Part shown: positions 25,259 through 41,366 of the stretch, piece after piece
Position numbering within the stretch: position 1 is the stretch's first letter
How the letters are laid out: each line of letters starts with the position of its first letter
IMG/VR virus record: IMGVR_UViG_3300007760_001422
Coordinates: 67,446-131,445 of that record
From: a virus
Direction: 5' to 3' (one strand)
Length of the DNA stretch: 64,000 bases
Program-made: the position numbers and the translations under genes
Notes under the pieces: generated by a model
What the model was told of the DNA's origin: nothing
The model's database searches: none
The model's input: the letters and a program-made list of their open reading frames with translations, nothing else

Positions 25259-26193
25259 TTTATTCCTCTAACCTCCGGATAATTAATTATAAACCATTCA
25301 CATGTATTTTTTAACGCTTCAGTGAATTCAGTATAATTTTCTTTTTCCCAGCCTAGTTCTAAAAGCTTTTTATTATCAGACGGCTTTCTATATTGGCCAG
25401 CTGGCATGTCATCTTGCCAAATGATCTCGCCGTGAAATTCAAAGATATCACAAATTATATTAGCCACCTCTTTAATCGAATACTCTTTTGTGTTTCCTAT
25501 GTTTATTGGATGTTTACCATCATACTTGTCTAACAAAAATAACAAAATTCTTGCCACATCATGTGAATAAGTAAACTCTCGCAATGGCGAACCATCTCCC
25601 CACAATTTAACACTGGTATTATTATTTTTTGCTTCATATACTTTTCTTATTATAGCTGGTAGTACATGACTGTCGTTTAAATGAAAATTATCATTTATTC
25701 CAAAAAGATTATTTGGAATGGCTGTTATAAAATTGCAACCATGCTGTTTTCTATAGGCACGAGATTGAACATCTAACATTCTTTTTGCATATGCATACCC
25801 AAAGTTTGAATAATGGGGTTCGCCGTTATGAAACTGTTCTTCTGTGAGCGGATAAGTTACCTCGTTTGGGTAAACGCATGTACTTAATAAGGAAATGACC
25901 TTTTTGGTGCCATAACGATGAGCAGCATCCAAAACGTTAGTATTGATTAGTATGTTGTCTATAAAGAAGTCTCCAACATAATCACTATTTGCTTTCACTC
26001 CTCCAACCTTTGCAGCTAAATGTATTACTTGTTTTGGTTCGTAATATGAAAACATTCTAGAAACCTCTTTCTTATCTTTAAGATCGAAGTTCTTGGTCCC
26101 AACAAAAACAGCATCGGGCACTAGTTCCCGAAGGGCTACGCCGACCATTCCAGTACCACCTGTCACTAAAATATCAACCATTTTCCCCTCCAT
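25255..26193 (-). CDS. fcl: GDP-L-fucose synthase / GDP-colitose synthase (ColC) family
   Basis: LAAKVGGVKAN, LSTCVYP, YAYAKR, SHVLPAIIRK, WGDGSPLREF. Confidence 0.9.
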   Translation of the reverse strand: MEGKMVDILVTGGTGMVGVALRELVPDAVFVGTKNFDLKDKKEVSRMFSYYEPKQVIHLAAKVGGVKANSDYVGDFFIDNILINTNVLDAAHRYGTKKVISLLSTCVYPNEVTYPLTEEQFHNGEPHYSNFGYAYAKRMLDVQSRAYRKQHGCNFITAIPNNLFGINDNFHLNDSHVLPAIIRKVYEAKNNNTSVKLWGDGSPLREFTYSHDVARILLFLLDKYDGKHPINIGNTKEYSIKEVANIICDIFEFHGEIIWQDDMPAGQYRKPSDNKKLLELGWEKENYTEFTEALKNTCEWFIINYPEVRGIN

Positions 26194-27250
26194 AAATAAC
26201 GTTAAAAATTCGTTTGGCAGCGTTGCCGTCCCATTTTTCCGGTATGTTGCCCCTTTTGTATTCCCCGCTATCTATTTGTTTAATCAGTCGTGTTATGTCG
26301 TTAACGCCATCAACAAGGGTATTGGTGCCAATTGTTACTGTGCTTGGCCTTTCTGTGTTTTTTCTATAAGTTAGGCAAGGCTTCCGAAGAAAGGTAGTTT
26401 CCTCTTGTAATCCACCAGAATCAGTTATTACAATATAACTTTTCTTCACCATATGTAAAAATTCCAAATAGCCAACTGGCTCTATAATATCCAAGTTTTT
26501 AACCGATTTAAATTCATCCCATAGATTAAATTTTTTAATATTATTAATTGTTCTATAGTGCGCAGGAAAAATTATTGGATATTCAATGCTCTTAAAGATT
26601 TCCAACACTTTCTTAAGTGCGATTTCAGTATCAACATTCGATGGCCGATGACAAGTAAAGAGAACATATTTTTTATCTGAATAATTCATTTCTATATGTT
26701 TGCTCTTTGTTTTTTCAACATTTCTAACAAGAGAGTCTATCATTGTGTTTCCGACAAAGTGTATCTTTTGTGTCGGTATGTTGGAAATAAACAAATTTGC
26801 CAACCCATTGCTTTCTGTGACGAAAAGCATGTCACTAATGCTGTCGACGAGGATCCGATTAATTTCTTCCGGCATTGTCATGTCGCCGCTGCGCAAGCCA
26901 GATTCAACGTGGGCAACTTTAATATTAAGCTTTGAGGCGGCTATGGCAGCCGCCAAAGTAGAATTTACGTCGCCATAAACAAAAACCATATCTGGTTCTT
27001 CAGAAATAAAAATTTTTTCAATTGTTTCTAAAACGCGTGCTGTTTGGGCGCCATGGGTGCCAGAGCCAACGCCCAAATTATAGTCTGGCTCTGGCATGTT
27101 CAAAGAATTAAAAAAAGTATCTGACATCTGGGGACTATAATGTTGCCCTGTATGTATCACAACTTGTTTGTCTCTTTTTGCAAGACAGTTGATCACGGGA
27201 GCGGCCTTTACAAAGTTTGGGCGGGCGCCAACAACATGAATTATTTTCAT
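26174..27250 (-). CDS. wecB: UDP-N-acetylglucosamine 2-epimerase (non-hydrolysing)
   Basis: VGARPNFVK, HTGQHY, AHVESGLRS, MPEEINR, TDSGGLQEET, TERP. Confidence 0.93.
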   Translation of the reverse strand: MKIIHVVGARPNFVKAAPVINCLAKRDKQVVIHTGQHYSPQMSDTFFNSLNMPEPDYNLGVGSGTHGAQTARVLETIEKIFISEEPDMVFVYGDVNSTLAAAIAASKLNIKVAHVESGLRSGDMTMPEEINRILVDSISDMLFVTESNGLANLFISNIPTQKIHFVGNTMIDSLVRNVEKTKSKHIEMNYSDKKYVLFTCHRPSNVDTEIALKKVLEIFKSIEYPIIFPAHYRTINNIKKFNLWDEFKSVKNLDIIEPVGYLEFLHMVKKSYIVITDSGGLQEETTFLRKPCLTYRKNTERPSTVTIGTNTLVDGVNDITRLIKQIDSGEYKRGNIPEKWDGNAAKRIFNVIYGGENG

Positions 27251-28230
27251 ATGTTATAATATTCTCTCATCCAATCAATGGTGTTGTGAACGCCCTCTTT
27301 CAAACTTACAGACGGACTGTGTTTAAGATCTCGCTCTGCTCTAGAGGCATCGACAAATTTGTGTTTGGTGGTTAAAATTTCATGTTTGTCTGCATAATTC
27401 ACCAAAGAGGGGTCGGCACCAGTTTTATTCAAAATAATCTCTGCCAAAGTTTCAATTGAATGATTCTCTTTGCTAGCTATATTATATTTTTCACCAGCTT
27501 TAAAATTATCAATAATGTTGCTAATTGTGTTAACTGCATCATAAATATACGTACTTGTTCTAGTGTGACCTTTAAAAACCGTAATTGGCCTATTGTGTAA
27601 TAAATTATAACAAAACAAACAATTAACGCTTCTGAAGGGGTGGTACCATTCTCCGGGGCCATAGGTATTGAATATTCTCACAATAACAGTATCTGTATTG
27701 TATTGGATTCTAGAATTGTGTATCTGCATCTCATTGACTCTTTTGGACATCGCATAATCATTCATTTGTATAATGGGTTCCCGATCTAGAAGATCCTCAT
27801 ACATGATTCCCTCCCAGTCTCCATATACTTCTGATGAAGAACAGTGCACCAATTTAAACCCTAGGCGCTCTTGTAATCTAATAATATTTTTTAATCCAAT
27901 GGCATTAGATTTCCACACCTTTTCATAAAAAAATTCTCCATTCCAGCGGCCGAACTCTGCTGCACAATTAAAAACAACATCTGGCTTTACATATTCTATT
28001 ACATCCTGTATCTGCCTATACTCTGATATGTCGCAGCGAAAATAATTATCATTTTCAACTTTTCCCATGCCGTGAGCATATATTTTATTCGTATGTAACA
28101 GATCGACACCAAAAACGGAATGGCCTTTTTTTATTAATACTTCTTCTAGCTTTTCCCCAACAACTCCAGCGACACCGGTTACTAAAACTCTCAATTTTAT
28201 TCCCCTCTGACTTCCTTGTTTTTGTCCCAT
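27247..28230 (-). CDS. NAD-dependent nucleotide-sugar epimerase/dehydratase
   Basis: VTGVAGVVG, SSSEVYG, YAMSK, FNTYGPGE. Likely true start is TTG at 28194. Confidence 0.88.
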   Translation of the reverse strand: MGQKQGSQRGIKLRVLVTGVAGVVGEKLEEVLIKKGHSVFGVDLLHTNKIYAHGMGKVENDNYFRCDISEYRQIQDVIEYVKPDVVFNCAAEFGRWNGEFFYEKVWKSNAIGLKNIIRLQERLGFKLVHCSSSEVYGDWEGIMYEDLLDREPIIQMNDYAMSKRVNEMQIHNSRIQYNTDTVIVRIFNTYGPGEWYHPFRSVNCLFCYNLLHNRPITVFKGHTRTSTYIYDAVNTISNIIDNFKAGEKYNIASKENHSIETLAEIILNKTGADPSLVNYADKHEILTTKHKFVDASRAERDLKHSPSVSLKEGVHNTIDWMREYYNI

Positions 28231-29015
28231 GCTGCCGAAAGCACTTTGGTGTCAACACCAAGGCGCTGCGCAAAATGAATCATTGCATTTAAATCTTTTG
28301 GAAAGCACTTGCCTCCATAGCCCATTCGCCCATCTGGTCCCGGGACACTTATGTGGGAGTCACCAACCCTGCTGTCTGATATTAGGCCCTCTACGGCCGA
28401 GTCCCATGTTGCCCCGAAATTATCACTAATTTGCCTCATTTCATTCATAAAGCTCAATTTTACAGAGAAAAAACAATTCAACAAATATTTAATAAACTCT
28501 GCAGTAACCGTATCTGTAACTGTATATTTCATTGATGAGAATCTTTTTTCATAAAGGCTTTTTAATTTTGCAGCGGATTCTTTCTCGTCACTTCCTATGA
28601 CGATCTGGGCTGCGTTTATAAAGTCCCACTTTGCTCTACGTTCAGTTAAAAACTCTGGATTCGACACAATGTTTAGGCCATGTTTTTTTGACAGTCTTCT
28701 GCAGGTTCCCGGGACAACTGTTGACTTGATAACAATTGTTTGTTTAAATGGATCAACTTTCGAACCAATCTCTTCTAAAACATTCTCTATGATTGAAAGA
28801 TCGATGGACATATCTGCTCTTGGCGGCGTGGGAACGCAAACAAAAATAAAATCTGATTGTGTTACCACCTCCTCCAAAGAGTGTGTCCGTTTGTTGGAGT
28901 CTGTGTCATATATTTTTACGTCGAAATCATATGAGTTGCTCGAACTAAATCCAAAAGATACAGCCGAACCCACAAAACCTCCACCAATTACTCCAACTCT
29001 ATAATTATTATTCAT
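28197..29015 (-). CDS. UDP-glucose/GDP-mannose dehydrogenase family protein (short form lacking the C-terminal domain)
   Basis: GGGFVG, CVPTP, IKSTVVPGT, NPEFL, GYGGKCFPKD with catalytic Cys. Confidence 0.88.
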   Translation of the reverse strand: MNNNYRVGVIGGGFVGSAVSFGFSSSNSYDFDVKIYDTDSNKRTHSLEEVVTQSDFIFVCVPTPPRADMSIDLSIIENVLEEIGSKVDPFKQTIVIKSTVVPGTCRRLSKKHGLNIVSNPEFLTERRAKWDFINAAQIVIGSDEKESAAKLKSLYEKRFSSMKYTVTDTVTAEFIKYLLNCFFSVKLSFMNEMRQISDNFGATWDSAVEGLISDSRVGDSHISVPGPDGRMGYGGKCFPKDLNAMIHFAQRLGVDTKVLSAAWDKNKEVRGE

Positions 29016-29586: not shown

Positions 29587-30171
29587 TTATCCTATATTTA
29601 AAACTGCGTTATATCGATGACAATCGTTTTCCTCATAAAAACAAGGAATTATACTAAAATTACGTTGCCGAAGTGCTTCTTTTGAATATACAAAATGCTC
29701 TTTTCTCGTTGCTTGTGATTTTAGATCGCCTAAAAATATTGTGTCTTTTGCCAATCTCAACATCTCATCGATTACTTCATCTGCATATTTTTTATCTGGT
29801 AAATATTGTATCACCCCAAAACAAAAAACTTTATCAAAAGTCTTATCTTTAAAAGGAAGTCGATTCGCTTCAGATACCACAACACTGTGTTCTGGGTGTA
29901 AGTTCTTGTGTTTCTTTATAAGCGGCGCAGAATAATCTACTCCATGGTAATCATATTCAGAAAACTCTCTAGATAAAAATCCGGCGCCGCAACCCACTTC
30001 TAATATCTTATCTCCTTTGTTGATGCTCATTGTCTTAATAATGTCATCAACGATGTTTGCACTATTAAATTCTATTTCCAAATGTTCATAGCCATCCAGA
30101 AAAAGCAAATCATTATTGGCACTATTTCCTTTTTCATCCCAAATATTTTTCCAAAATGATTTATTGCTCAT
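29587..30171 (-). CDS. Class I SAM-dependent methyltransferase
   Basis: ILEVGCGAG, GVDYS, LPFKDKTFD. Confidence 0.9.
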   Translation of the reverse strand: MSNKSFWKNIWDEKGNSANNDLLFLDGYEHLEIEFNSANIVDDIIKTMSINKGDKILEVGCGAGFLSREFSEYDYHGVDYSAPLIKKHKNLHPEHSVVVSEANRLPFKDKTFDKVFCFGVIQYLPDKKYADEVIDEMLRLAKDTIFLGDLKSQATRKEHFVYSKEALRQRNFSIIPCFYEENDCHRYNAVLNIG

Positions 30172-31126
30172 CTAAATATTCCCAGTCATAACTGTTTCTG
30201 TATGAAGACCATGGAATATTGGTATCACTAAAGGTATCTCTTAATTCTTCAACCGACATTGACAGGCCCTGTGTATAGCCGCCAACATCAAAGCCCCACT
30301 TATTAAAAAATCCTGCATGTGCTTCAGTTTCCCATTTGTTTCCCGTGGGCCTCATAGATCTTCTCATCGGGTGTGAATGAAAAACATTTGGTACCCAAAC
30401 ATTCACTAAATTATTTTTCAACGCCATCAAGGACCAGTCCTCATCTATTAGCATTGTATAGTTTGTCCAGTCTTCGCACTGGCCGACCTTCTTCATCGAC
30501 TTTGTACTAATCAGCATTATTGCAGACATGGGCCCGTGAATCTTCACTGGGCGCGAGGGATAATCCAATAAGTGTAAGTTTTGTTTGACCATTTCGGGCG
30601 GTGCGTTCTTGAGATGGGCCATGTTGTGCAGCTGGAACATAGCGCCCCAATTATCAAAATCCAAATGATATCCAGCCCTAAACGTGTCAGTTACTAATCT
30701 TCCCTCTTCTTTATAATAATATTCACTAGTCGAAGTAATCCAGCCAATCTCGTCTTCGTGTCCCTTGATTTCATTAATTATTTTGTTAAAGTAATCATCT
30801 GTGATAAATTCCGTGTCATCATGAGTTATTAAGATCCATTCAGTCATATCTTGATATTTATCAAAAAATTCATTGTAATCTGTTGCCCATGATTTTTCTG
30901 AAACTTTAAAGTCCAATAGCTTTTCTTTTCTTAAGAATTCTTTATTATTTGGATCATTAAATATGTTAAGCGCTGCTTGTTCCATGCCGGAATCGACCGT
31001 TAAATATATTCCATAATTACAGTTAATATTCTTTTTGGCAAACGATATTAAGCTATCTTTAAGATTATCTTCTCTAACATTGGGCCCAGAACATTTCATA
31101 AAAACAATTAAATCTAATTCAGGCAT
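30161..31126 (-). CDS. GT-A fold (GT2-like) glycosyltransferase
   Basis: WILITHDDTEF (DxD-like), IDEDWSL acid-base motif, late His motif; glycan cluster context. Confidence 0.6.
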   Translation of the reverse strand: MPELDLIVFMKCSGPNVREDNLKDSLISFAKKNINCNYGIYLTVDSGMEQAALNIFNDPNNKEFLRKEKLLDFKVSEKSWATDYNEFFDKYQDMTEWILITHDDTEFITDDYFNKIINEIKGHEDEIGWITSTSEYYYKEEGRLVTDTFRAGYHLDFDNWGAMFQLHNMAHLKNAPPEMVKQNLHLLDYPSRPVKIHGPMSAIMLISTKSMKKVGQCEDWTNYTMLIDEDWSLMALKNNLVNVWVPNVFHSHPMRRSMRPTGNKWETEAHAGFFNKWGFDVGGYTQGLSMSVEELRDTFSDTNIPWSSYRNSYDWEYLDEQ

Positions 31127-31439
31127 TTTTCACCTCGCATGCACTTTTGCCAAAATATGTTTCAGCATTAATAGACTTGTCATCGATGTATAAATCATAA
31201 TGGGGTTTACCCAATTTTAATTCATGATGTTTTGCGCCCCATTTTTTTAACTGTATTGAGGTTAAATCATACCAATCGATTTTTGTTTGGCTGCCGCGGG
31301 CAGTCCAATAAACAATTACATTTCCTTCATCGTAGAGTTTGTTTATTTTTTCAATATTTTCTCTTATTGGTTGGGCCTTTTCATACTCTCCATTTGTTAA
31401 GCCGGCTATGGTGCCATCAATATCAACATAGATAATCAT
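31119..31439 (-). CDS. Small HAD-superfamily phosphatase (capsule-biosynthesis type)
   Basis: YVDIDGT (DxDxT), WTARG, GKP, YIDDK. Confidence 0.85.
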   Translation of the reverse strand: MIIYVDIDGTIAGLTNGEYEKAQPIRENIEKINKLYDEGNVIVYWTARGSQTKIDWYDLTSIQLKKWGAKHHELKLGKPHYDLYIDDKSINAETYFGKSACEVKNA

Positions 31440-31790
31440 TTAATCTCCCTTAATTATTCTATAGCTATCTGAATCAAAATGCTCGGTGGAAAACTCAAAT
31501 AATTCTGATTTTTCTAAAGCGACCATTTGATGTCTCAATCCTGTATAGACATGAAAGTTTTCGCCGGGCTTTAATACTTTTTGATTAGCTTTTGTTATAT
31601 CATCTTCATCCGAATAATAAATCATCATTTTTCCAGACTGTAAATAAAATACTTCATCCTTAATTTTGTGATAATGCCATGAGCATCTTTTGCCGCTTTC
31701 AAAAAAAAGTAACTTACCACAATATTCTGGTTTGTTAACGATCCAAAGCTCGTGGCCCCACCCCTTGGAAACAAATTTAATATCATGCAT
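31440..31790 (-). CDS. Cupin (sugar-phosphate isomerase-like)
   Basis: KGWGHE...SWHYHKIKDEVFY...RHQM...FEFST cupin metal ligands. Confidence 0.85.
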   Translation of the reverse strand: MHDIKFVSKGWGHELWIVNKPEYCGKLLFFESGKRCSWHYHKIKDEVFYLQSGKMMIYYSDEDDITKANQKVLKPGENFHVYTGLRHQMVALEKSELFEFSTEHFDSDSYRIIKGD

Positions 31791-32643
31791 TTTTTATTCT
31801 CGCTACAAGTGTATCACACTTTCCAACATCGGCCAACTGATTTTTGTATTCTACATTTAACGCGTCAGAGTCTAGATAATTGAAAACATGATGGCCGCCC
31901 GGTTTTCCCTCTTTGAGCCACAGTAAATGATTTGATAAAGGATATCTTTGGACTTGTTTTATGTAATCTGTAGAAAACCCAGCCTTTAAAAATACTTTCT
32001 GGAGCGTGTCTGCTGAATAATAAAACAAATGACACTTCCAATAATAAAAAGCTTTGTAATCCTCACAATCATATAATGTCAAAAGAGCATCATCAACATT
32101 GGGAACTTCTACTATTATTTTTCCGCTCTCTGATAAGTGCTCGCCCAAATTCTCTAGAAGAGACGCTGGGTTTTCTACATGCTCCAACACATGAAAAAGA
32201 AAAATTACATCAAACTTTTGTTTCTTATCTATTTCTTTTAAAGAAGAGAACAGCGACAATCCCTCTATCGCGCTCAACCGCTGATTTAGTCCTTTGTCTA
32301 TTTCTATAGCTGATATTGATTTTGCATATTTTTTTGCGTATTTAAGAAAGTCTCCTGTGCCGCAGCCGAAATCTAAAATATTTTTGTTTATAATATCTTT
32401 CTTAAAATCCTTTATTCTTCTTCTGTTATCTGCGATATTTATTTTAGACCATGCGCTATAATCTCTCTTAAAAGAATTTTCTAACATCTTAGAATCTTCA
32501 TAAAATCCTTTTTTTATATGTTCAAAGCTATCTAATGTCACTAATCCGCATGCGCTGCATTTTATAACAGACAAATTGTGATCATCTCTAACTCTACCGT
32601 CAACTTTTAAAAAATTAGTAGCTTTACATAAATAACAAATCAT
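31783..32643 (-). CDS. SAM-dependent methyltransferase with N-terminal Zn knuckle
   Basis: CYLC...CSACGL, LDFGCGTG, FHVLEHV, EVPN. Confidence 0.9.
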   Translation of the reverse strand: MICYLCKATNFLKVDGRVRDDHNLSVIKCSACGLVTLDSFEHIKKGFYEDSKMLENSFKRDYSAWSKINIADNRRRIKDFKKDIINKNILDFGCGTGDFLKYAKKYAKSISAIEIDKGLNQRLSAIEGLSLFSSLKEIDKKQKFDVIFLFHVLEHVENPASLLENLGEHLSESGKIIVEVPNVDDALLTLYDCEDYKAFYYWKCHLFYYSADTLQKVFLKAGFSTDYIKQVQRYPLSNHLLWLKEGKPGGHHVFNYLDSDALNVEYKNQLADVGKCDTLVARIKNA

Positions 32644-33350
32644 TTTTTTGTTCCTGTCACCAAAAGCATCTTTTCAATAGAAAATCGTATCAACTTTCTA
32701 TCTTTCGTGTTTCGATGTTCTCGATCTTTCCACTTAAGAAAATTTGGCAAAAAAGATATCAACCAAGGGATCACCCTTAACCAACGATGTCTCCAAACAA
32801 ACGGAAGCTGATAAAAATGTTCACAATCAACTTTATCAAACCCATGAATTATAAAGGCATCTCTAAGGCTCTTTCTAGAAAATGCTCTTACGTGGGTATA
32901 GTCGTCCCAAAAAACATCCATGCAACTAACCCAATCCGGAGTCATAATAACCACAACACCGCCGGGCTTAAGAACTCTGTAAACCTCGCTTATGAAATTG
33001 TCTGTATTAAAAACATGTTCAATGACTGATTTGCTAAAAATGAAATCGAATGTATTATCATCAAAAGGAATTCTTTCTTTTTCTAGATCACACGGCTTAA
33101 ATACAATGTTATCAACATGTTCATCTCTTAAATCTATTCCATGAAGATCAAACTGGGCCATTTGACGAAAACAATTAAGCCACGTTCCCGAGCTACACCC
33201 TACATCTAAAAGCTTTTGATTTGGTGTGCCATTTGAAACAAAATAATTCGTTACAATATGTTTGGCCAGCTTTTTTGGGTATGGGTTTCCCTCGTCGGGG
33301 GGATAAATTATTTTAGCGTAATTTGTCATTATAATCCTTTTATTGTCCAA
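32640..33350 (-). CDS. Class I SAM-dependent methyltransferase
   Basis: LLDVGCSSG, SKSVIEH, RVLKPGG, DDYTH. Confidence 0.9.
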   Translation of the reverse strand: MDNKRIIMTNYAKIIYPPDEGNPYPKKLAKHIVTNYFVSNGTPNQKLLDVGCSSGTWLNCFRQMAQFDLHGIDLRDEHVDNIVFKPCDLEKERIPFDDNTFDFIFSKSVIEHVFNTDNFISEVYRVLKPGGVVVIMTPDWVSCMDVFWDDYTHVRAFSRKSLRDAFIIHGFDKVDCEHFYQLPFVWRHRWLRVIPWLISFLPNFLKWKDREHRNTKDRKLIRFSIEKMLLVTGTKK

Positions 33351-34078
33351 CCGCCATCAACATATAAATCTTGGCCGGTTATAAAACTAGATGCGTTAGA
33401 TGCTAGAAATACCGCGGCTCCAACTAGATCATCTGGTGTGCCCCAGCGGCCGAGCACTGTTTTGTTTTTTCTTTGTTTGTTTTTGTTCGGATCGTTCCAG
33501 CTTTCTTTGGTCATGTCAGTTTTTATATATCCGGGTCCGATATTATTGGCTCTAATCCCATACATGCCCAAATCATTTGCTACAGATTTGGTTAATTGTT
33601 TAAGGGCACCTTTAAAAGCAACATAGGCCGGATTATCTGGAAAAGCCAACTCGGCGTTTAAACTAGTAATATTTATTATTGTGCCACTTTTTTGTTCTTT
33701 CATGCTTCTAGCAACCAACTTAATTAATTCATACGGACCCTTTAGATTAACCTCGTAGGTTTTATTCCAATATTCATCTGGATATTCCAAGAGATCGTGT
33801 CCAAAGCTCACTCCAGCATTGTTGACTAGTATATCAATCTTCTCGTATTTTTTTAAAACAAAGTTAACTAACTTTTCTAGCGACTGTTTATCGGCAACAT
33901 CACATGTAAAATAATCTTCAACTTCTCCTTTTAAGCTTTCCGCTATAACATCCACAAAAACAACATTTGCGCCCGCATTATATAAACCCTCTGCAATTGC
34001 CCTGCCGTTACCTCGTGCGGCGCCAGTAACAATTGCCGTTTTGCCCTTCAGGGAAAAAAGGCTCTCTACATAGTTCAC
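33329..34078 (-). CDS. Short-chain dehydrogenase/reductase
   Basis: TGAARGNG, NNAG, YVAFK, NNIGPGYIKT. Confidence 0.92.
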   Translation of the reverse strand: MNYVESLFSLKGKTAIVTGAARGNGRAIAEGLYNAGANVVFVDVIAESLKGEVEDYFTCDVADKQSLEKLVNFVLKKYEKIDILVNNAGVSFGHDLLEYPDEYWNKTYEVNLKGPYELIKLVARSMKEQKSGTIINITSLNAELAFPDNPAYVAFKGALKQLTKSVANDLGMYGIRANNIGPGYIKTDMTKESWNDPNKNKQRKNKTVLGRWGTPDDLVGAAVFLASNASSFITGQDLYVDGGWTIKGL

Positions 34079-34812
34079 CTAATCAAAATCCTATTTAATC
34101 TAATCTCTTCCGAAATCATTTCTGAATTGAACTTTATTATAAACTCGACATATTCTGCCACTTCTTCTGGTCGAATAAAGGTTTTAAAATCCTGTCTTGT
34201 GTCTGTAGCTCCCATGGCTGTTTGTGTGCTTCCCGGAGAAACAGAATATACACGAGTGCCGTGTTCTTTAAGTTCATGAAACAAAGATCTGCCTAGACCC
34301 AAAAGAGCATGTTTCGAAATACAATATAAACCTGTGTCACCGGATCCGCCATAAGCTGAAGAAGAGCCAATATTAATAATACGACCCCAGCCACTTTTTA
34401 TGAAGTCGGGTGCAAACTCGCGCGATAAAATAAATGGTGCCTTAACGTTAACAGCCATACATTTTTCATAATCATCAAGATCGGTTTCTAATAATGGCTT
34501 AATTGGAAATAAGCCTGCCGAATTAACAAGAATATCTAACTTGTACGTATGTCGAATTCGTTTTATTAATTCGCGAAGATCGTCTTCTTTTGTTAAATCA
34601 GCGGCCATTGAGGCGGCGGTGTGAAAATGCCATTTCTTTTTTAGCGAAAGTTCTTTTCTTAAATCATCTATTTTTTTTTCGTTACGGCCGGTTAAAAATA
34701 CATTGCACCCAGATTCAAAAAGCTGCTTGGCTATTGCAGCGCCGATCCCTCCGGAGGCGCCTGTAATTAAGGCACTTTTCCCCTTTAAGATATCACTTTT
34801 TATTACTAACAC
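34075..34812 (-). CDS. Short-chain dehydrogenase/reductase
   Basis: TGASGGIG, NSAG, YCISK, SPGSTQT. Confidence 0.92.
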   Translation of the reverse strand: MLVIKSDILKGKSALITGASGGIGAAIAKQLFESGCNVFLTGRNEKKIDDLRKELSLKKKWHFHTAASMAADLTKEDDLRELIKRIRHTYKLDILVNSAGLFPIKPLLETDLDDYEKCMAVNVKAPFILSREFAPDFIKSGWGRIINIGSSSAYGGSGDTGLYCISKHALLGLGRSLFHELKEHGTRVYSVSPGSTQTAMGATDTRQDFKTFIRPEEVAEYVEFIIKFNSEMISEEIRLNRILIR

Positions 34813-35246
34813 AACTCCTCCACAAGCTCAAGTATATTCCCCTCCGGATCTCTGCAAAATGCAATTTTCACATTACCATCTGGGGATTTTTGTACTTTGT
34901 GGAAGAATTTAATATTCTCTCTTTTTAACCTTTCATAAAGGTTGTCTAAATTTTTAACTGTTAGTGCATAATGAGACACGCCTATTTGAATAATTTGTCT
35001 ATATTGATTCTGAAGCGGGGTATCATTTCCTTTTGGAGAGTGATATTTCAGCAGTTCCACCATGCCCCCTTCTGGAAGCTTCATTTTGGTGGTTGTCACT
35101 TGAACGTTCTTAATACCAGAAAAATTATCAATCACTTCGCCACTTTCTTCCATGGTCTTTGTAATTTCGCAGCCCAGCACATTGCAATAAAAGTTTTGCA
35201 TTTTTTCCATGTCGCAAACTGTTATACCAAGATGACGAAGCCTCAC
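34806..35246 (-). CDS. VOC/glyoxalase (epimerase-like) family protein
   Basis: RHLGITV...FY..VLG, VELLKY, SHYALTV, RDPEGNILELVE. Confidence 0.9.
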   Translation of the reverse strand: MRLRHLGITVCDMEKMQNFYCNVLGCEITKTMEESGEVIDNFSGIKNVQVTTTKMKLPEGGMVELLKYHSPKGNDTPLQNQYRQIIQIGVSHYALTVKNLDNLYERLKRENIKFFHKVQKSPDGNVKIAFCRDPEGNILELVEELC

Positions 35247-36082
35247 AGCGTATCAACCTTGCGAAGCTTGCCAGCGATTTGTTTTTCCTTATCCGTCACG
35301 ACCTTTTCGCCATTACCAAGCGCAACCTCCACAGAGCGGACATATTTCACCAAACGACGCAAGCCGCCCAATTCTAGAGAGGCCGACTGATCTGATCCAT
35401 ACATAGAACGATCTAGTGTGATATGTCTTTCTAGCGAAGTTGCTCCGAGAGCAACCGCGGCGCAACTAACTACTATTCCTGTTTCATGGCCACTATAGCC
35501 TACATCACAATTAAAAACGCTCTTAAGAGTATTAATTGTTAAAAGGTTTGCATCTTCTGGACTCATAGGATACGAACTATTGCAGTGCATGATTTCGTAG
35601 GGGCAACTTGCATCTTTAAAAATATTAATTGCTTTCTCTATTTGCTGCAACGTGCTCATGCCAGTCGAAATAAATGTATGTCGTCCTTCTTGAGCAATTG
35701 CTTCCAATAATTTACGATCCGTGAGCATCGCAGATGCAACTTTGTTATATTTTAAATCGAACTGTCGTAAAAAAAATTGACTTTCAATATCCCAAGCCGA
35801 TGCGGTCCACTCAATCTTTTTTTCTCGACAATAGTTATCTATTTCTGTATAGTCGCTAGCTGAAAATTCTAGCCCTTCTTTTTGTTGTCTATTGGTCGTC
35901 CCCCATGGGCTTTCTCTGGGTCTATCTAAATCTTCTTTCGCATATACTAGGTCTAAAGTTCTTTTTTGAAACTTTACCATATCGCAGCCCGCTTCGACTG
36001 CGCCATCAATAAGTTTTTTGGCGATATCTAGATCGCCGTTATGGTTAATGCCAATTTCGGCAATTATAAATGTTTTTTTCAT
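35243..36082 (-). CDS. neuB: Nonulosonic acid (N-acetylneuraminate-type) synthase, short form without the SAF/AFL domain
   Basis: IIAEIGINHNGD, VKFQKR, ISTGMS, HCNSSYP, GYSGHE, ERHITLDR, GSDQSASLE. Confidence 0.93.
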   Translation of the reverse strand: MKKTFIIAEIGINHNGDLDIAKKLIDGAVEAGCDMVKFQKRTLDLVYAKEDLDRPRESPWGTTNRQQKEGLEFSASDYTEIDNYCREKKIEWTASAWDIESQFFLRQFDLKYNKVASAMLTDRKLLEAIAQEGRHTFISTGMSTLQQIEKAINIFKDASCPYEIMHCNSSYPMSPEDANLLTINTLKSVFNCDVGYSGHETGIVVSCAAVALGATSLERHITLDRSMYGSDQSASLELGGLRRLVKYVRSVEVALGNGEKVVTDKEKQIAGKLRKVDTL

Positions 36083-36093
36083 TTTATTTTTTT

Positions 36094-36804
36094 TCAGTGG
36101 TTTTGTAAGTATTGCAGCAAACGATGCCCTTCGGTATTTAATTGATATTTTAAATATCCAACATCATCTGGAGAGTCAATGTCCACCACGGAATCTCCTT
36201 TCATTGCATATATTTTATCACCAAAAGTGCTTCCTTTTAATACAATTTCTTTTTTTACGATATCTATATGCCCATTTGCCCTATAGGTCTCTGGAAAGTT
36301 TTGGCGAGGAAGATTACTATAATCTTTTTTACCCTTATAATCTTCAAAAAAACCTGAACAAAGTCCGTTTTTTTCTATTTTAAAGACCTTGTATGGGGTT
36401 TCATTAATTTTATTCAAGCTTCTTAGTGCCGTTATATTTTTTCTATTTTTATAATATGTTTCTATTGCGTCGTCAATATATTCTGGTTCTCTGAGGGGGG
36501 TTGTTGGTCGCATTAAGGCCACCTCGTCAGTCTCTATGTTGTCAAAAAAATGTTTTAAAAAGCCCAAATCTCTAGAATTGTCTTTCGAATATTTGGCCGG
36601 CCTAACAAACGGCACTTCGGCTCCAAACTTAAGTGATATCGATGCTATTTCTACATCTTCGGTCGACACAATGATTCTATTAATTTTCTCACTCATCTGG
36701 CAGGCTGCTATTGTATAAGCGATAAGCGGGTATCCTTTGATGTCCATTATATTTTTTCTAGGTATGCTTTTACTGCCTCCGCGCGCCGGAATAATAGCTA
36801 TCAT
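36094..36804 (-). CDS. neuA: Acylneuraminate cytidylyltransferase (CMP-NulO synthetase)
   Basis: IIPARGGSKSIPRKNI, VSTED, RPTTPLR, VDIDSPDD. Confidence 0.93.
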   Translation of the reverse strand: MIAIIPARGGSKSIPRKNIMDIKGYPLIAYTIAACQMSEKINRIIVSTEDVEIASISLKFGAEVPFVRPAKYSKDNSRDLGFLKHFFDNIETDEVALMRPTTPLREPEYIDDAIETYYKNRKNITALRSLNKINETPYKVFKIEKNGLCSGFFEDYKGKKDYSNLPRQNFPETYRANGHIDIVKKEIVLKGSTFGDKIYAMKGDSVVDIDSPDDVGYLKYQLNTEGHRLLQYLQNH

Positions 36805-37559
36805 AATTCTAATGTATTTCTATGTTCACAACCCAACAACTCACTTATATATGAGTCCAGACGTAGTTGGTGTCCGTGGTTTTTTAAAATATAATCTTTA
36901 AAATATATTTTTTGAGGCGCCTGTTTGTGCCCGGGCTCACCGATATCTTCATTCTCTAAACCTTTGTTTGTGTGGCCCGGGCGGTGGGACGTGCTTGAGT
37001 GATTTCCTTGAGCATAAAAAGAAAAGCCAGTCACCAACAACTCCTCCACATCATGCTTTAATAGCATGGTTATGGCAGTCTGGCCTGCGTTTGGTTCCGT
37101 ACCTACTTGGCCAAATATTTCTCTATAATTATGAAGTCCGATCCAGTGGAAAGGTATATTAAATATATTAATTTTATTAAAATTCGCAACAACCGGACTA
37201 ACAATGTGGGCTGGCCAGCCTTGCCAATTATCTGGCCCTGTAGCTTTCACACATGGACAAATAACATACTTTAAATATTTAGAGATAATTGACTTTTCTA
37301 ATAATCTTTGCGCAAAAACATCAATAAACCTTGTTCCGCAATTATGAAATACTATATCTGTTTTGTTGCCATAGTCTTCTTCATAGCCTGTTGGGTGCAC
37401 TTCATTGACCCTACAAACTAAATCATATGAATCAATCTCTTTACCAGCGCCCGTGCCAATCAAGTGCGGAGAGGGGCCCACTATTGCAACCCTTTTTCCT
37501 TTTAACAGGTTTAATAATTTTTCATCTTTTTGATATTGCATCATTAATTTTTTTAACAC
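36801..37559 (-). CDS. GT29-like (eukaryote-type) sialyltransferase
   Basis: KRVAIVGPSPHLIGTGAGKEIDSYDLVCRVN...YEEDYGNKT resembles sialylmotif L. PNAGQTAITMLL...ELLVTGFSFY resembles sialylmotif S. A late His (PGH) resembles motif VS. Adjacent to neuA/neuB. Confidence 0.72.
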   Translation of the reverse strand: MLKKLMMQYQKDEKLLNLLKGKRVAIVGPSPHLIGTGAGKEIDSYDLVCRVNEVHPTGYEEDYGNKTDIVFHNCGTRFIDVFAQRLLEKSIISKYLKYVICPCVKATGPDNWQGWPAHIVSPVVANFNKINIFNIPFHWIGLHNYREIFGQVGTEPNAGQTAITMLLKHDVEELLVTGFSFYAQGNHSSTSHRPGHTNKGLENEDIGEPGHKQAPQKIYFKDYILKNHGHQLRLDSYISELLGCEHRNTLEL

Positions 37560-38394
37560 CTTCAGTTAAAGGTGTTTTCGGCTCCCAGTGTTTTAAAATA
37601 TAGGTGCTAGGTTCATATTTGAGATTCAACTGAACCGTGTCTTTTAAGTTTCCTTTTGTATATTGGCAATTGTATAATTCTGATATTACTTTAGCAACAT
37701 TTTCGATTGTTTCCCACTTAAAGCTTGAAATATGTATTTCTTCCTTCCTAGAGATACTATCATAATTTTTACTCAATTTATATAACGCTTCACAGCAATC
37801 TTCTACATATAAAAACTGTCGTGATTCTTGCCCAGAAGTAAGCATATTTATTGTACCATCGTATTTTGCCATATTAATGAAATCTGTTATTACATGTGCC
37901 CTGTCTTCTTCTACATTCATTTCGGGACCATAAACATTCCATAATTTAACATATAGTCCATTTAATGCTGCAGTATATTTTTCTCCAATTAATTTTGCAT
38001 TTCCATAGCTAGAGTGGGTCATGTCCGACATCTGTGTTGAAGTAAAAATAAATGGTTTATTATACTCTTTAATAAATTTAAATGTATTTGCTAATAATTT
38101 AACATTGTTGTTGACAAAATCAAACGTATTTTCTTTTTCCTTAAGATATTTACTTCCTCCAACATCAAAAGCTAAAAAAAACACAAAGTCTGATTGTTTT
38201 AACTTTTCTAGGAAATGCTTTTGTATTGTTTTGCAACTTTCAAGTTTTCTTAAGTCTTCTGCTGGTGTTCTTTTTAAATCATATTCTTCTACTTCGTGGC
38301 CCTCTTTTGTTAGAAATTCAACCAGAGGTGCGCCAATTTGGCCCTCGGAGCCTAAAACTAAATATTTCATTAACAGCCTTCTCCTTCTGGCCAT
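37522..38394 (-). CDS. NAD-dependent sugar epimerase/dehydratase
   Basis: LVLGSEGQIG, YGNAK, WNVYGP, RQFLYVED. Likely true start is ATG at 38370. Confidence 0.85.
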   Translation of the reverse strand: MARRRRLLMKYLVLGSEGQIGAPLVEFLTKEGHEVEEYDLKRTPAEDLRKLESCKTIQKHFLEKLKQSDFVFFLAFDVGGSKYLKEKENTFDFVNNNVKLLANTFKFIKEYNKPFIFTSTQMSDMTHSSYGNAKLIGEKYTAALNGLYVKLWNVYGPEMNVEEDRAHVITDFINMAKYDGTINMLTSGQESRQFLYVEDCCEALYKLSKNYDSISRKEEIHISSFKWETIENVAKVISELYNCQYTKGNLKDTVQLNLKYEPSTYILKHWEPKTPLTEGVKKINDAISKR

Positions 38395-39083
38395 GTCGAC
38401 GGATCTTCATTAATGTGCATGTCTTCTCTAATGCCGCCATGGCGAATTCTAGTAAATCTTATGGGGACTTTTTTAACTTTAACGCCTTGTGACTTGAGGT
38501 GTACATAAAGAGTTGATTCTGCATGTATTGTGAAGCCCTGAAGAGAATATCTCCTAATATAGTCCAATTCGCTCAAATATATATTCATATTGTTTCTATT
38601 ACCTACAGCGAATCTATCATTATAGCCGTTTCCCTGCACAATACTCCAGCAATGAAAGTCTGGTATATATAAATAATTTAAATCATAACTGTCAAAATCT
38701 TCCGGTAAAGATCGAAAGTATTCTACATCTAGGCGAGATCTTATTATTCTGTCATATTGAAAGTTGTTTTCTTTTTCATGTTGTGTCCTCATTTCGTTGC
38801 ATTTTTTCATGCCGCGCAGCATTTGCATATAACCTTGTAAACCTCCGCGTTCAATGGCTTGCTGGTGAGTTATGTCGCTTTCATCAACGTGAACATCGGG
38901 CTCTACCCTTAAATCCGTGGCGACTTTTGACATGTATTTTTCTGCTTTAAAGGAATCGTCGTTTTCTGAAATGTACATAAATATATCGCACTCCCCTAGG
39001 GGTTCTAATAAATATTTTTTGATATTTTCATGAGTGTGTTCTAATGACCTACACTGCCCCGTAAAACAAACGGCCGTCCTCAT
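38370..39083 (-). CDS. Uncharacterised glycan-cluster protein (putative glycosyltransferase-like)
   Basis: AVCFTGQCR...YDRIIRSRLD...NDRFAVG...HAE pattern, which I recognise from polysaccharide clusters and large DNA viruses. Confidence 0.55.
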   Translation of the reverse strand: MRTAVCFTGQCRSLEHTHENIKKYLLEPLGECDIFMYISENDDSFKAEKYMSKVATDLRVEPDVHVDESDITHQQAIERGGLQGYMQMLRGMKKCNEMRTQHEKENNFQYDRIIRSRLDVEYFRSLPEDFDSYDLNYLYIPDFHCWSIVQGNGYNDRFAVGNRNNMNIYLSELDYIRRYSLQGFTIHAESTLYVHLKSQGVKVKKVPIRFTRIRHGGIREDMHINEDPSTWPEGEGC

Positions 39084-40234
39084 TCGGCGCTCCTATTTAT
39101 AGCATCACAAACTAGTTCAATTTCTTCTTTTGTTATATGATGGTTGTTGGGTATATACATACCATATTCATGCACAAGCTTGGCATTTTTAAGATTTCGG
39201 CGGCCATATTTTTTAATCCACATCGGTTGCTCACTTAAAGAGCCGCAGATTAATGGCCTGTTTTCTACGTTAATACGATTTAAATTTTCTATAATTTTCT
39301 GCCTATTTGGGTGGATTATTGGATAAGCGAAATTTGAAACATAAGAACCTGCCCTTTCTGCTGGCTTCCAGTATGTGTTCTTAATAAGCTTATTATATAA
39401 CTCGTAATTTTCATTTCTTTTTGTTACGATGTCTTCTAGCTTCTTTAATTGGCCCATTCCTAAAAAGGCTTGCAGATCTGTTGCCCTAAAATTAAACCCG
39501 TAATAATAAAAAGTGTAAAGCGCATTAAAATCACTTACGTCATATTCATCTCTTAATTGTTTTATTTTATATTCTTCCAGATCCCTGTCCCAACCATGTG
39601 ATCTTAACGCCTTAAGAACATTAAACATCTCCCTATCGTTGGTACAAACCATGCCGCCCTCTATCGTAGAGATGTGATGACCAAAGTAAGTTGAAAAAGA
39701 AGACATCAAGCCAAAAGAACCTATCTTGCTCTTTTGGTGTTCCGAGCCCAATGATTCACAAGAATCCTCCAATAAAACAACCCCATTCTCGTTGCACAGC
39801 GTTTTGATTTCTTTCATGTTGGGTACAAGCCCGAGAACAGAAACTAACATCAATACTTTGGGTGATTCTTTTTCTATTAATTCTTCAAGATGCTTCAAAT
39901 CAACAGACAGATCTTCCATATTACAATCACATAATACTGGTTCCAATCCCAGCTGCACCACAGGAGCGAGATCTGTCGACCACGATAATGCAGGTACCAC
40001 AACTTTGTCACCCTTGTTGATAATTCCGCTTTCTATCATACTATAAAGCATTAATAAGTTAGCAGAAGAACCAGAATTGACAAAAACTGCATATTTAGTG
40101 CCCAAATATTTAGCCCACTCTTCTTCGTATTCTAAAGTTAGTTCACCTTTTGTCAATCTGGGATAAGTCGACAACCAGCCTATCAGTTCATCGATGTCGC
40201 CATTATCTATTGTGTCATTAACTAACTTAATCAT
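39080..40234 (-). CDS. colD: GDP-4-keto-6-deoxymannose 3-dehydratase (ColD-like, PLP-dependent, DegT family)
   Basis: SGSSANLL, PALSWST, EDSCES. STYFGHHISTIEGG has His where aminotransferases have the Schiff-base Lys. The Fe-S Cys cluster of E1/RfbH is absent. Confidence 0.75.
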   Translation of the reverse strand: MIKLVNDTIDNGDIDELIGWLSTYPRLTKGELTLEYEEEWAKYLGTKYAVFVNSGSSANLLMLYSMIESGIINKGDKVVVPALSWSTDLAPVVQLGLEPVLCDCNMEDLSVDLKHLEELIEKESPKVLMLVSVLGLVPNMKEIKTLCNENGVVLLEDSCESLGSEHQKSKIGSFGLMSSFSTYFGHHISTIEGGMVCTNDREMFNVLKALRSHGWDRDLEEYKIKQLRDEYDVSDFNALYTFYYYGFNFRATDLQAFLGMGQLKKLEDIVTKRNENYELYNKLIKNTYWKPAERAGSYVSNFAYPIIHPNRQKIIENLNRINVENRPLICGSLSEQPMWIKKYGRRNLKNAKLVHEYGMYIPNNHHITKEEIELVCDAINRSAE

Positions 40235-41366
40235 TTTTCTTTCCTTTAAAGTACTCGAATATAGATTTTATCACATAATCTTGTTGTTCTTTAGTTAACA
40301 TATAAGAAGATGGCAATGATATCCCCCTATTATAGATATTTTTGCTAACAGGGCAAACATTAACTTTAAACACACCCTTGTAGCAAGGTTGCATGTGCAG
40401 TGGGTGGAAAAATATTCTTGTGCCTATGTTTTTAGATTTTAAATATTCAATCAACTCATCTCGATAATCTGTCATAAAAGAGGTAAACCAAAAAACTGGT
40501 CTTGTCTTTGGATCAATATATACTGGTTTAAAATATTCTTTAATTGGTTCAAGCTCTTTAACATATTTGTCATGTATTTTTCGTTTCTTTTTTATTATCT
40601 TATCCAACTTATGTAATTGAGATATGCCAATCGCTGCTTGCATTTCTGTAAAACAAAAATTATACCCTATATGATCATGAATAAAAACACCTTTTCCATC
40701 TCTTCCATGGTTTTTTAATCTATAGCATGCCTTTGCCAGTTCGTCATCATCTGTTATGATAACACCACCCTCTCCACAAGTAATAGTCTTGTTTCCATAA
40801 AATGATAAAATTCCCATATCTCCATATGTGCCAACATGCTTTTTATTATAAAAAACACCAACACCTTGAGCGGCATCTTCTATAACCTTTAAAGAATATT
40901 TCGATGCCAGCTGCATTAAAATCCCCATTTCAGCACTTTGGCCATAAAGATGCACCGGCATTATTGCCTTTGTTTTATTTGTAATAAGTTTCTCTACCTT
41001 GGAGATATTAATGCAGAAAGTATCTTTTCTGACATCGCAAAAAACAGGAGTGGCGCCAGCCATTATAACTGCATTTGCAGTTGCGATAAAGGTCATATCT
41101 GGTACTATTACTTCGTCGCCCGGGCCGACGCCTATAGCCTTAAGACAGCTATACAGTGCGACTGTGCCATTTGTCATGGCAATTGCGTGTTTGGAGCCTG
41201 TAAGTTTCCTTATAAGTGCTTCAAACTCTTTTGTAAGCTCATTTTCAGTGACATAGGTAGAATCGATAACTCTTTTAAGCTGAATCAACTCTTTCTCGTC
41301 AATCCATGGCTCAATCTGCGGTATATAATCCTTCATAAGATTTTTGTTCTTTGACCAAGGAGTCAC
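40227..41366 (-). CDS. DegT/DnrJ sugar aminotransferase, GDP-perosamine synthase-like
   Basis: TFIATANAV, PVHLYG, EDAAQ, SFYGNKTITCGEGG (Lys retained), GISLPS. Likely true start is ATG at 41336. Confidence 0.85.
   Translation of the reverse strand: MTPWSKNKNLMKDYIPQIEPWIDEKELIQLKRVIDSTYVTENELTKEFEALIRKLTGSKHAIAMTNGTVALYSCLKAIGVGPGDEVIVPDMTFIATANAVIMAGATPVFCDVRKDTFCINISKVEKLITNKTKAIMPVHLYGQSAEMGILMQLASKYSLKVIEDAAQGVGVFYNKKHVGTYGDMGILSFYGNKTITCGEGGVIITDDDELAKACYRLKNHGRDGKGVFIHDHIGYNFCFTEMQAAIGISQLHKLDKIIKKKRKIHDKYVKELEPIKEYFKPVYIDPKTRPVFWFTSFMTDYRDELIEYLKSKNIGTRIFFHPLHMQPCYKGVFKVNVCPVSKNIYNRGISLPSSYMLTKEQQDYVIKSIFEYFKGKKND

Follow-up and report, generated by a model that had tools for sequence, protein, structure and literature searches.

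A block of twelve genes in an uncultured, marine tailed phage may encode one pathway that makes, tailors and transfers a sialic-acid-like sugar. The window analysed here, a stretch of 64,000 nucleotides, is the second half (67446-131445) of the 131,445-base IMG/VR virus record IMGVR_UViG_3300007760_001422, and positions 29587-37559 of the window hold 12 consecutive minus-strand open reading frames (ORFs), arranged head to tail as translationally coupled genes and joined by overlaps of 4-22 nt or gaps of at most 11 nt. We give slightly better than even odds that this block forms a single phosphate-route pathway to a cytidine monophosphate (CMP)-activated 3-deoxy-2-ulosonic sugar, followed by tailoring and GT29-like transfer. 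A metal-binding cupin would isomerise a central ketose phosphate to a manno-configured aldose phosphate, a NeuB-family synthase without a SAF domain would join phosphoenolpyruvate (PEP) to that aldose phosphate, a small HAD phosphatase would strip the terminal phosphate from the ulosonate phosphate, and a NeuA-like enzyme would attach CMP. Two short-chain dehydrogenases/reductases (SDR1 and SDR2), a VOC-fold protein and methyltransferases may then change stereochemistry or oxidation state and O-methylate the sugar, plausibly by oxidation, VOC-type epimerisation beside the carbonyl, then reduction and O-methylation. A GT29-like (sialyltransferase-fold) enzyme, possibly with a GT-A glycosyltransferase, would move the product onto an acceptor, perhaps a glycan of the host surface or a protein of the virion. 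We infer each catalytic step, the tailoring order and the substrate from the gene families, their linkage, their conservation among phages and the link of this NeuB clade to phosphatases and isomerases. The substrate would be either mannose 6-phosphate, giving a nine-carbon acid of the 3-deoxy-D-glycero-D-galacto-non-2-ulosonic acid (KDN) type, or D-glycero-D-manno-heptose 7-phosphate, giving a ten-carbon acid. All genes named in the original prediction for this DNA were borne out by Pfam and NCBIfam, the HAD by directly read motifs, and the GT-A glycosyltransferase is a twelfth ORF additional to that list.

The short NeuB and its genomic partners

The synthase (35243-36082, 279 amino acids) matches the NeuB domain PF03102 (E = 2.2e-71; 240.5 bits against a cut-off of 22.1) over residues 24-260; it has no Pfam match to the SAF domain and ends 19 residues past the NeuB domain. 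Both NeuB_NnaB (TIGR03569; 259.4 bits, cut-off 399.65) and PseI (TIGR03586; 187.7 bits, cut-off 340.25) equivalog cut-offs are missed, and the closest solved relative is a 290-residue 'sialic acid synthetase' (6ncs). In an alignment to Neisseria meningitidis NeuB (1xuu), the phage protein retains the equivalents of E25, K53, Q55, K129, S132, S154, Y186, S213, H215, E234, H236 and D247, that is, both metal histidines and ten further contact residues, each conserved in at least 95 of 104 short NeuB representatives. Because these twelve residues, which we take, partly from the 1XUZ literature, to be metal-binding and PEP/sugar-contact positions, are kept, the phage NeuB is probably active. At the position of F112, 94 of these short proteins have Trp. 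The adjoining NeuA-like protein, a putative CMP-ulosonate synthetase (36094-36804, 236 amino acids), matches CTP_transf_3 (3.3e-20), and its best NCBIfam match is PseF (119 bits, under the cut-off of 205.7).

An exhaustive search with this NeuB returned 18,038 representative relatives at E <= 1e-3, and at least 120 clusters share at least 72% identity with it, all from genome or metagenome collections, including some from Tara. Among the 150 nearest representatives, 136 align at both ends, 104 of them short and 30 with a SAF-sized C-terminal extension. In a maximum-likelihood tree of 51 rows, midpoint-rooted and labelled by depositor or PGAP annotation, all short NeuBs form one 34-row clade (support 100/99), and genes annotated as neuB, pseI or sialic acid synthase, several of which adjoin neuC or pseH, form a separate 10-row clade (100/100). 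Within the short clade, the window NeuB is placed in a subclade of 20 rows (100/99) that takes in short NeuBs of Azospirillum, Pelagibacteraceae, Lachnospiraceae, Acidobacteriota, Myxococcales and Magnetococcales and includes bacterial NeuBs with HAD or SIS neighbours. It thus belongs to a large, distinct clade of short SAF-less NeuBs. The earlier view of this enzyme as non-canonical holds, given the missing SAF domain, the scores under the NeuB and PseI equivalog cut-offs and the position outside the annotated neuB/pseI clade; the phylogeny, a tree without a characterised KDN-9-phosphate synthase, shows no grouping with annotated Neu, Leg or Pse synthases. In the passages of PMC8208679 that treat them, SAF-less forms make up roughly 30% of bacterial NeuBs and are reported solely from environmental organisms, with no function given.

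The genomic partners of short NeuBs were compared in 16 bacterial loci, 15 found via the window NeuB and one on an Azospirillum thermophilum plasmid (56% identity). A KdsC-type HAD adjoins or neighbours the short NeuB in 11 of the 16, and a GmhA-like SIS_2 isomerase lies within ~2 kb in 9; one or the other is present in 14, the exceptions being L018 and the truncated L019. Pfam and NCBIfam find HAD and SIS as one fused protein in L005 and L013, and such a fusion is likely also in L011 and L014, where both local searches match a single ORF. The L013 fusion scores 89.6 bits with KdsC, 72.7 bits with KDN-9-phosphatase and 182-189 bits with GmhA, somewhat short of the cut-off each time. The gene order there (MptE-like transferase, HAD-SIS fusion, short NeuB, cytidylyltransferase) appears to make up a whole route in compact form, starting at a ketose phosphate and ending with transfer of a CMP-sugar. 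Ten fused NeuB representatives were examined for domain make-up. NeuB is fused to a phosphatase in two of them (P0136, CTP_transf_3+HAD+NeuB; P0148, HAD+NeuB), to GT29 in P0158 and to CTP_transf_3 in P0165 and P0175, and the remaining five carry SAF plus a cytidylyltransferase, a xylose-isomerase-like TIM barrel or a methyltransferase. A cupin-profile search of the 150 nearest NeuB representatives found no NeuB-cupin fusion. In the marine virus AG-345-L05, a short NeuB (42% identical) is followed directly by a homologue (48%) of the small HAD of the window, with a DegT and a likely cytidylyltransferase upstream and no cupin within the 24 kb read. Since short NeuB relatives adjoin or fuse with phosphatases, isomerases, cytidylyltransferases and GT29, context supports a phosphate route. 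The original prediction had proposed a KDN-like or novel sialic-acid analogue made by a route of this kind; NeuB-phosphatase adjacency and fusions sustain its phosphate part, and KDN is only a candidate for the product. A related argument appears in passages of Ricaldi et al. (PMC3438082), where a Leptospira fusion is taken to indicate that some bacterial synthases use a phosphorylated route.

Three viral contigs (L002-L004) encode a NeuB 71-76% identical to that of the window, with NeuA adjoining NeuB in each. L004 has NeuB-NeuA-VOC-SDR2-SDR1-MT3-cupin-HAD (MT3 being one of the three methyltransferases MT1-MT3) as a contiguous run at 51-76% identity; L003 has this whole core except SDR2 and adds a class-III aminotransferase, a B12-binding radical SAM enzyme and a GT10-like gene; and L002 matches the window gene for gene as far as NeuB, where the contig stops. 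The HAD is 55-58% identical in L003 and L004 and lies beside the cupin, SDR1 is 63-65% identical in the same two loci and SDR2 51% identical in L004. The VOC protein is 49-51% identical in L003 and L004 and is found also in L010 and L019, and MT3 is conserved in L004 (56%) and L003 (36%) and also in L019, L008 and L010. GT29, MT1 and MT2 are the variable parts: MT1 has no homologue in L002-L004 (blastp, E <= 1e-5), MT2 homologues (43-44% identical) adjoin a short NeuB in L006 and L010, and an MptE-like (Maf-type) protein precedes NeuB in L004 where the window has GT29. The GT-A glycosyltransferase has a 34% identical homologue in L004. The records behind the window, L003 and L004 are all fragments.

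An acetolactate-synthase-like thiamine diphosphate (ThDP) enzyme of ~580-610 amino acids lies 3' of the short NeuB-HAD pair in four bacterial loci (L005, 11886-13631; L011, 5666-7447; L015, 11454-13283; L016, 11457-13286), and such an enzyme is found also in viral L003 (3004-4797). It may add a two-carbon branch or decarboxylate a keto acid, so some short NeuBs may feed other products. On the plasmid of the cultured bacterium A. thermophilum (L020, 1-28831), a canonical legionaminic-type cluster faces the short-NeuB cassette, which consists of the short NeuB, a 361-residue 'HAD hydrolase family protein', a TylF-type O-methyltransferase and a PhyH dioxygenase; past an IS21 element follow SDRs, a TIM-barrel protein, a radical SAM enzyme and a second cytidylyltransferase.

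The cupin-HAD pair and the candidate substrate

The cupin (31440-31790, 116 amino acids) matches Cupin_2 (1.6e-6; 28.1 bits, cut-off 27.2), and its metal site (H39, H41, E46 and H87) is invariant in 32 sequences. In Foldseek, its model (pLDDT 92.8) comes closest to a D-lyxose isomerase solved with fructose or mannose (E = 1.7e-8); a 110-residue phosphomannose isomerase aligns at TM 0.76/0.80, and CapF, KdgF and oxalate decarboxylase cupins score almost as high as the D-lyxose isomerase. With phmmer, weak matches to L-ribose and D-lyxose isomerases were obtained. As modelled, the cupin resembles aldose-ketose isomerases of the lyxose/mannose type, and KdgF-like or CapF-like roles would also be compatible with the fold. 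The 'MPI' of cyanophage S-SCSM1 (PMC9602691) was considered as an identity for the cupin; S-SCSM1 is not among the 25 cupin-homologue records listed, all of which are labelled otherwise. The minimal, capless HAD (31119-31439, 106 amino acids) carries all four motifs in its translation (D6-x-D8-x-T10, T46, K78 and D86-D87) and has weak family scores (HAD_PNKP, 19.6 bits, under cut-off; TIGR01689, 6.9e-9, 35.7 bits; BT0820 family, 21.8 bits). Its best structural relative in the PDB is 9iqw (2e-8), for which a literature search found no paper.

The closest homologues of the window cupin (62-69%) and HAD (46-60%) lie close together in nucleotide-heptose clusters of T4-like cyanophages (P-SSM2 genes 309-313; Bellamy gp212-217). 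P-SSM2 has five neighbouring genes for a nucleotidyltransferase, a PfkB kinase, the HAD, the cupin and an epimerase, with best NCBIfam matches to HldE domain II (106 bits), HldE domain I (148 bits) and ADP-glyceromanno-heptose 6-epimerase (HldD, 210 bits). In Bellamy, an HddA-like GHMP kinase (279 bits) is found with the cupin-HAD pair, as is an HddC-like transferase (62.5 bits). These Hld and Hdd scores are all under the curated cut-offs, though each is the top match. The complete genomes of P-SSM2 and Bellamy encode no GmhA-type SIS (0/5 records searched) and no NeuB. The simplest reading is that nucleotide-heptose synthesis in the cyanophages relies on the cupin for the isomerase step (GmhA) and on the HAD for the phosphatase step (GmhB), and the five-gene set of P-SSM2 reads as a complete ADP-heptose pathway without GmhA. 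The cyanophage clusters differ from the window in having a heptose kinase, a nucleotidyltransferase and, in P-SSM2, a 6-epimerase without NeuB, whereas the window has NeuB and NeuA without a kinase or NTP_transferase. We note that depositors label the cyanophage HAD 'phosphoheptose isomerase' and the cupin 'cysteine dioxygenase' (P-SSM2, L025, 7983-8664; Bellamy, L024, 8001-8309 and 10544-10894); both labels look wrong for the folds and context.

Since the cupin and HAD homologues are neighbours in GmhA-less cyanophage heptose clusters, heptose 7-phosphate is as ready a substrate candidate as mannose 6-phosphate. D-glycero-D-manno-heptose 7-phosphate is the one-carbon homologue of mannose 6-phosphate and has the same terminal phosphate. 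Judged by these homologues and by the GmhA-like partners in bacteria, the heptose appears to fit at least as strongly. One reading, to which we give well under even odds, is that NeuB joins PEP to D-glycero-D-manno-heptose 7-phosphate, made from sedoheptulose 7-phosphate by the cupin in place of GmhA, and that the HAD dephosphorylates the product, which would become a CMP-activated ten-carbon 3-deoxy-ulosonic acid, a class of sugar whose biosynthesis is not known to have been described. If so, the same ten-carbon chemistry would extend to many bacterial cassettes of NeuB with GmhA-like and KdsC-like partners. A literature search with names of the ten-carbon 3-deoxy-ulosonic acid found no paper, and a 2026 preprint (bioRxiv 10.64898/2026.04.20.719630) reports that mass spectrometry of Magnetospirillum reveals CMP-linked ulosonic acids with ten carbons, still unassigned.

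Somewhat more doubtful is a route in which the cupin makes mannose 6-phosphate from fructose 6-phosphate and the product is KDN, then epimerised and O-methylated. That a NeuB-type synthase can use a sugar phosphate has a precedent in PMC6200933, by which a route of KDN-9-phosphate synthase, phosphatase and CMP-KDN synthetase is established in Bacteroides thetaiotaomicron (synthase BT1714, phosphatase BT1713) and Prymnesium parvum. As in the phage scheme, a NeuB-family synthase there combines PEP with a sugar phosphate, and a HAD phosphatase and a CTP_transf_3 cytidylyltransferase follow; no amino-sugar precursor genes are required, and the conserved phage core has none. The best structure and sequence matches of the cupin, including the 110-residue phosphomannose isomerase, bind mannose or fructose, and the KdsC-type partner in L013 also matches the KDN-9-phosphatase model below its cut-off. 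However, the nearest homologues of the cupin and HAD belong to clusters for heptose rather than mannose (by the sub-cut-off HddA, HldE and HldD matches above), the cyanophage genomes that carry them have no GmhA-type isomerase, the isomerase linked to the bacterial relatives is GmhA-like, if under cut-off, and the Pfam phosphomannose-isomerase family has no match to the cupin at E <= 0.01. The phage set differs further from the CMP-KDN pathway in that its synthase is of the SAF-less clade and has no E134 or R314 equivalents, its 106-residue phosphatase is of another HAD subfamily rather than KdsC-type, it adds a cupin isomerase and six tailoring genes, and its substrate may be a heptose phosphate.

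We regard as unlikely a mosaic origin in which the cupin-HAD pair is a nucleotide-heptose remnant or helper working with a host kinase and nucleotidyltransferase, and NeuB and NeuA use a free sugar supplied by the host. Five genes separate the pair from NeuB in the window, phage glycan islands are mosaics, and that of the window also holds Gmd, Fcl, WecB and two DegT genes. Yet the pair occurs together with NeuB and NeuA in three phage records that are related, and of these G000 and G002 lack a GHMP or PfkB kinase in the sequence searched; bacterial relatives and fusions independently tie short NeuB to a phosphatase and an isomerase; and the HAD of AG-345-L05 is directly 3' of NeuB. A search of the record behind L004 found no GHMP kinase, PfkB kinase or SIS_2, and the whole 131-kb record containing the window has no match to NeuC, PseG, NeuD/LegH-type, GmhA-type SIS, GHMP kinase, PfkB kinase or NTP_transferase families, hence no heptose 7-phosphate kinase or heptose 1-phosphate nucleotidyltransferase. 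NeuA is thus the sole nucleotidyltransferase in the record able to partner the cupin-HAD pair.

Several points weigh against the phosphate-route pathway itself. The cupin-HAD pair could be unrelated to NeuB, because in Bellamy and P-SSM2 it serves a NeuB-less pathway with a kinase and a nucleotidyltransferase, and a PfkB-type kinase lies ~8 kb from the cupin-HAD pair of L003 in the record behind that locus, as the mosaic would also allow. The absences noted above are weak evidence, because the window's record is only ~49% complete. The phage HAD is not KdsC-type, and KdsC-type partners are what occur in the bacterial relatives. In NeuB, the E134 equivalent is Met119, and R314 is absent along with SAF; by the relevant passages of PMC8208679, E134 is catalytic and R314 essential, and the SAF-less forms are handled there only statistically. 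The five commonest residues in the E134 column of the 104 short representatives are M, S, L, C and K (86/104), all non-acidic; in 19 of the 30 long representatives the residue is Asp. Clade labels in the 51-row tree, which holds no characterised KDN-9-phosphate synthase, are annotation rather than experiment, and a literature search found no biochemistry for any member of this SAF-less clade.

A legionaminic- or pseudaminic-type 5,7-diamino acid, made via the nearby DegT enzymes and extended SDRs (37522-38394 and 27247-28230) with NeuB as the final synthase on an unphosphorylated sugar, is very improbable: a DegT at 40227-41366 has LegC (315 bits) and PseC (297 bits) as best matches and NeuA has PseF, but all three scores are under cut-off, the record (~49% complete) has no match to a NeuD/LegH-type N-acetyltransferase, PseG or a hydrolysing 2-epimerase, NeuB is outside the annotated neuB/pseI clade, and the DegT upstream of NeuB in L004 is an RfbH equivalog (456 bits, cut-off 423), a dideoxyhexose marker. 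That DegT and a dTDP-glucose-dehydratase-like SDR, also upstream of NeuB in L004, would be dideoxyhexose genes rather than Leg or Pse genes. The original prediction had found no recognisable Leg/Pse set and no NeuC. The former is essentially right, apart from the DegT with sub-cut-off LegC and PseC matches 2.7 kb beyond the block; the latter agrees with the record search and with the only 2-epimerase (26174-27250), which is WecB-type (wecB 332 bits, cut-off 210; NeuC 72 bits, cut-off 236).

Transferases, tailoring genes and the glycan island

The GT29-like transferase (36801-37559, 252 amino acids) matches PF00777 (1.4e-12; 48 bits, cut-off 23) only at profile positions 49-118, the sialylmotif-L region. 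Residues G28-P29-S30, G178 and F181-Y182 are invariant and H211 near-invariant. The top Foldseek matches to its model (pLDDT 94.7) are ST8SiaIII, ST6Gal1, ST6GalNAc2, a mammalian sialyltransferase and then Cst-II, and each rank listed as far as the 24th is either a GT29 enzyme or an entry named 'glycosyltransferase in complex with inhibitor' (probability 1.0, TM 0.46-0.57). Pfam and fold thus uphold the earlier assignment to the GT29 sialyltransferases. It has only 46 relatives, none informatively named, and its donor is probably not N-acetylneuraminic acid. Like the bacterial GT29-like sialyltransferases of Petit et al. 2018 (PMC5811610), it is soluble, lacks the eukaryotic transmembrane stem and lies in prokaryote-type DNA; unlike them, it is phage-encoded and just 252 residues long, with Pfam covering the sialylmotif-L region alone. 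The words 'phage' and 'virus' are absent from that paper. The GT-A (GT2-like) glycosyltransferase (30161-31126, 321 amino acids) has no Pfam or NCBIfam match and was assigned with a protein atlas, where it has a feature score of 0.98 to viral clusters, partly Glycos_transf_2, and a structure TM of 0.65-0.74 to GT2 families.

The remaining block genes encode three class-I S-adenosylmethionine-dependent methyltransferases, MT1 (29587-30171, 194 amino acids; Methyltransf_11, 1.4e-14), MT2 (31783-32643, 286 amino acids; Methyltransf_23, 1.4e-24) and the core member MT3 (32640-33350, 236 amino acids; Methyltransf_23, 4.1e-17), two classical SDRs, SDR1 (33329-34078, 249 amino acids; adh_short_C2, 2.9e-64) and SDR2 (34075-34812, 245 amino acids; adh_short, 2e-46), and the VOC/glyoxalase-fold protein (34806-35246, 146 amino acids; Glyoxalase, 1.8e-17). 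We only infer the roles of the SDRs, the VOC protein and the methyltransferases. The best PDB matches of SDR1 are gluconate 5-dehydrogenases and a putative hexonate dehydrogenase, and it is similar to KduD as well; by sequence it resembles enzymes of keto-deoxy sugar acids, and it may carry out a redox step in tailoring the sugar acid. SDR2 has generic PDB matches, and the VOC protein, which may be an epimerase or an isomerase working beside a carbonyl, matches glyoxalase I and methylmalonyl-CoA epimerase weakly. Tailoring of (CMP-)nonulosonic acids by oxidoreductases and SDRs has precedent, prophage-borne cases included, in the relevant passages of PMC12053666 and PMC13656337. There, EpaA/EpaB of an Acinetobacter baumannii prophage and ElaA/ElaC of a capsule locus are likewise mobile or locus-borne oxidoreductases, including adh_short_C2 SDRs, that re-tailor a nonulosonic acid, with C8 oxidation and reduction as the proposed mechanism. 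The phage block differs in having no aldo-keto-reductase fusion but a VOC protein and methyltransferases. No Ela- or Epa-type enzyme is among the best 60 of 375 (SDR1) and of 236 (SDR2) PDB matches, which are gluconate-5-dehydrogenase, FabG-like and similar generic entries; as these are only generic, no specific Ela/Epa link can be claimed.

The source record, with an estimated completeness of 49%, is from a tailed phage. PHROGs identifies a major head protein (6.8e-67), a portal (4.4e-75), a large terminase (1.7e-54) and tail-fibre or baseplate proteins in its first half, and a baseplate wedge subunit is the one match among 10 flanking proteins of the window. The terminase is 46% identical to that of Flavobacterium phage immuto, 43% to that of Microcystis phage Mel-JY01 and 34% to those of T4-like cyanophages, and megablast of the 8-kb block against 50,697 phage records gave no DNA-level match. 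The block sits inside a glycan island of ~24 kb (23400-47185) with Gmd (456 bits, above the equivalog cut-off), an Fcl-like reductase, extended SDRs, an SGNH hydrolase, DUF7796, DUF6165, several glycosyltransferases and two DegT aminotransferases. The DegT genes (39080-41366) are just beyond the block, with best matches to RfbH and, under cut-off, LegC/PseC. Because Gmd and the Fcl-like reductase (24290-26193) co-occur with an RfbH/ColD-like DegT (39080-40234), the island may also produce GDP-fucose or a 3,6-dideoxyhexose such as colitose.

Some further features of the window lie outside the block. An NDP-sugar dehydrogenase of only 272 amino acids (28197-29015) adjoins WecB and an extended SDR; it has N-terminal and central domains without the C-terminal UDP-binding domain and may be a truncated gene or a short variant. 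The DUF7796 protein (38370-39083) opens with the motif MxxAxCFxGQxR, as do two unannotated proteins of the Bellamy heptose cluster (L024, 3948-4700 and 8788-9543), which suggests that marine phages share an uncharacterised family of glycan enzymes. Downstream of the island, a 443-residue PIN-PhoH fusion is encoded at 49397-50728, and an ORF at 48348-49049 (233 amino acids) has a sub-cut-off Pfam match (22.1 bits, E = 1.4e-4) to the anthrax lethal-factor N/C domain family and is probably a distant metalloprotease-like fold. Very large ORFs at 2-5602 (>1867 amino acids, open-ended), 9535-16539 (2334 amino acids) and 17724-21665 (1313 amino acids) flank the baseplate wedge gene and presumably encode tail-fibre or baseplate proteins.

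Relation to known pathways and significance

In the pathway to 3-deoxy-D-manno-oct-2-ulosonic acid (Kdo), the isomerase KdsD, the synthase KdsA, the phosphatase KdsC and the cytidylyltransferase KdsB act in turn. The proposed phage pathway has the same logic of a ketose-phosphate isomerase, a PEP-dependent synthase, a HAD phosphatase and CMP activation, and the bacterial relatives of the phage NeuB use a KdsC-family phosphatase. It differs in that the synthase is of the NeuB family and not KdsA, the isomerase is a cupin in the phage or a GmhA-like SIS in the relatives and not KdsD, and the phage product presumably has more than eight carbons. A literature search found no characterised SAF-less NeuB or substrate of one, no NeuB/GmhA/KdsC cassette and no phage-borne ulosonic acid module of this kind. 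The kind of pathway seems to be widespread, and the new clue that the window provides is the cupin-HAD pair shared with the cyanophage heptose clusters.

Short SAF-less NeuB genes are very common, yet no assignment of their substrate was found in the literature. If confirmed, the route proposed here would join those to Kdo and KDN as the third phosphate-route family among sugar-acid pathways, its product might have ten carbons, and the labels 'phosphoheptose isomerase' and 'cysteine dioxygenase' on the cyanophage homologues would be corrected. It would also mean that marine phages bring complete machinery for the surface display of such sugars, with a bearing on phage-host recognition and superinfection exclusion.

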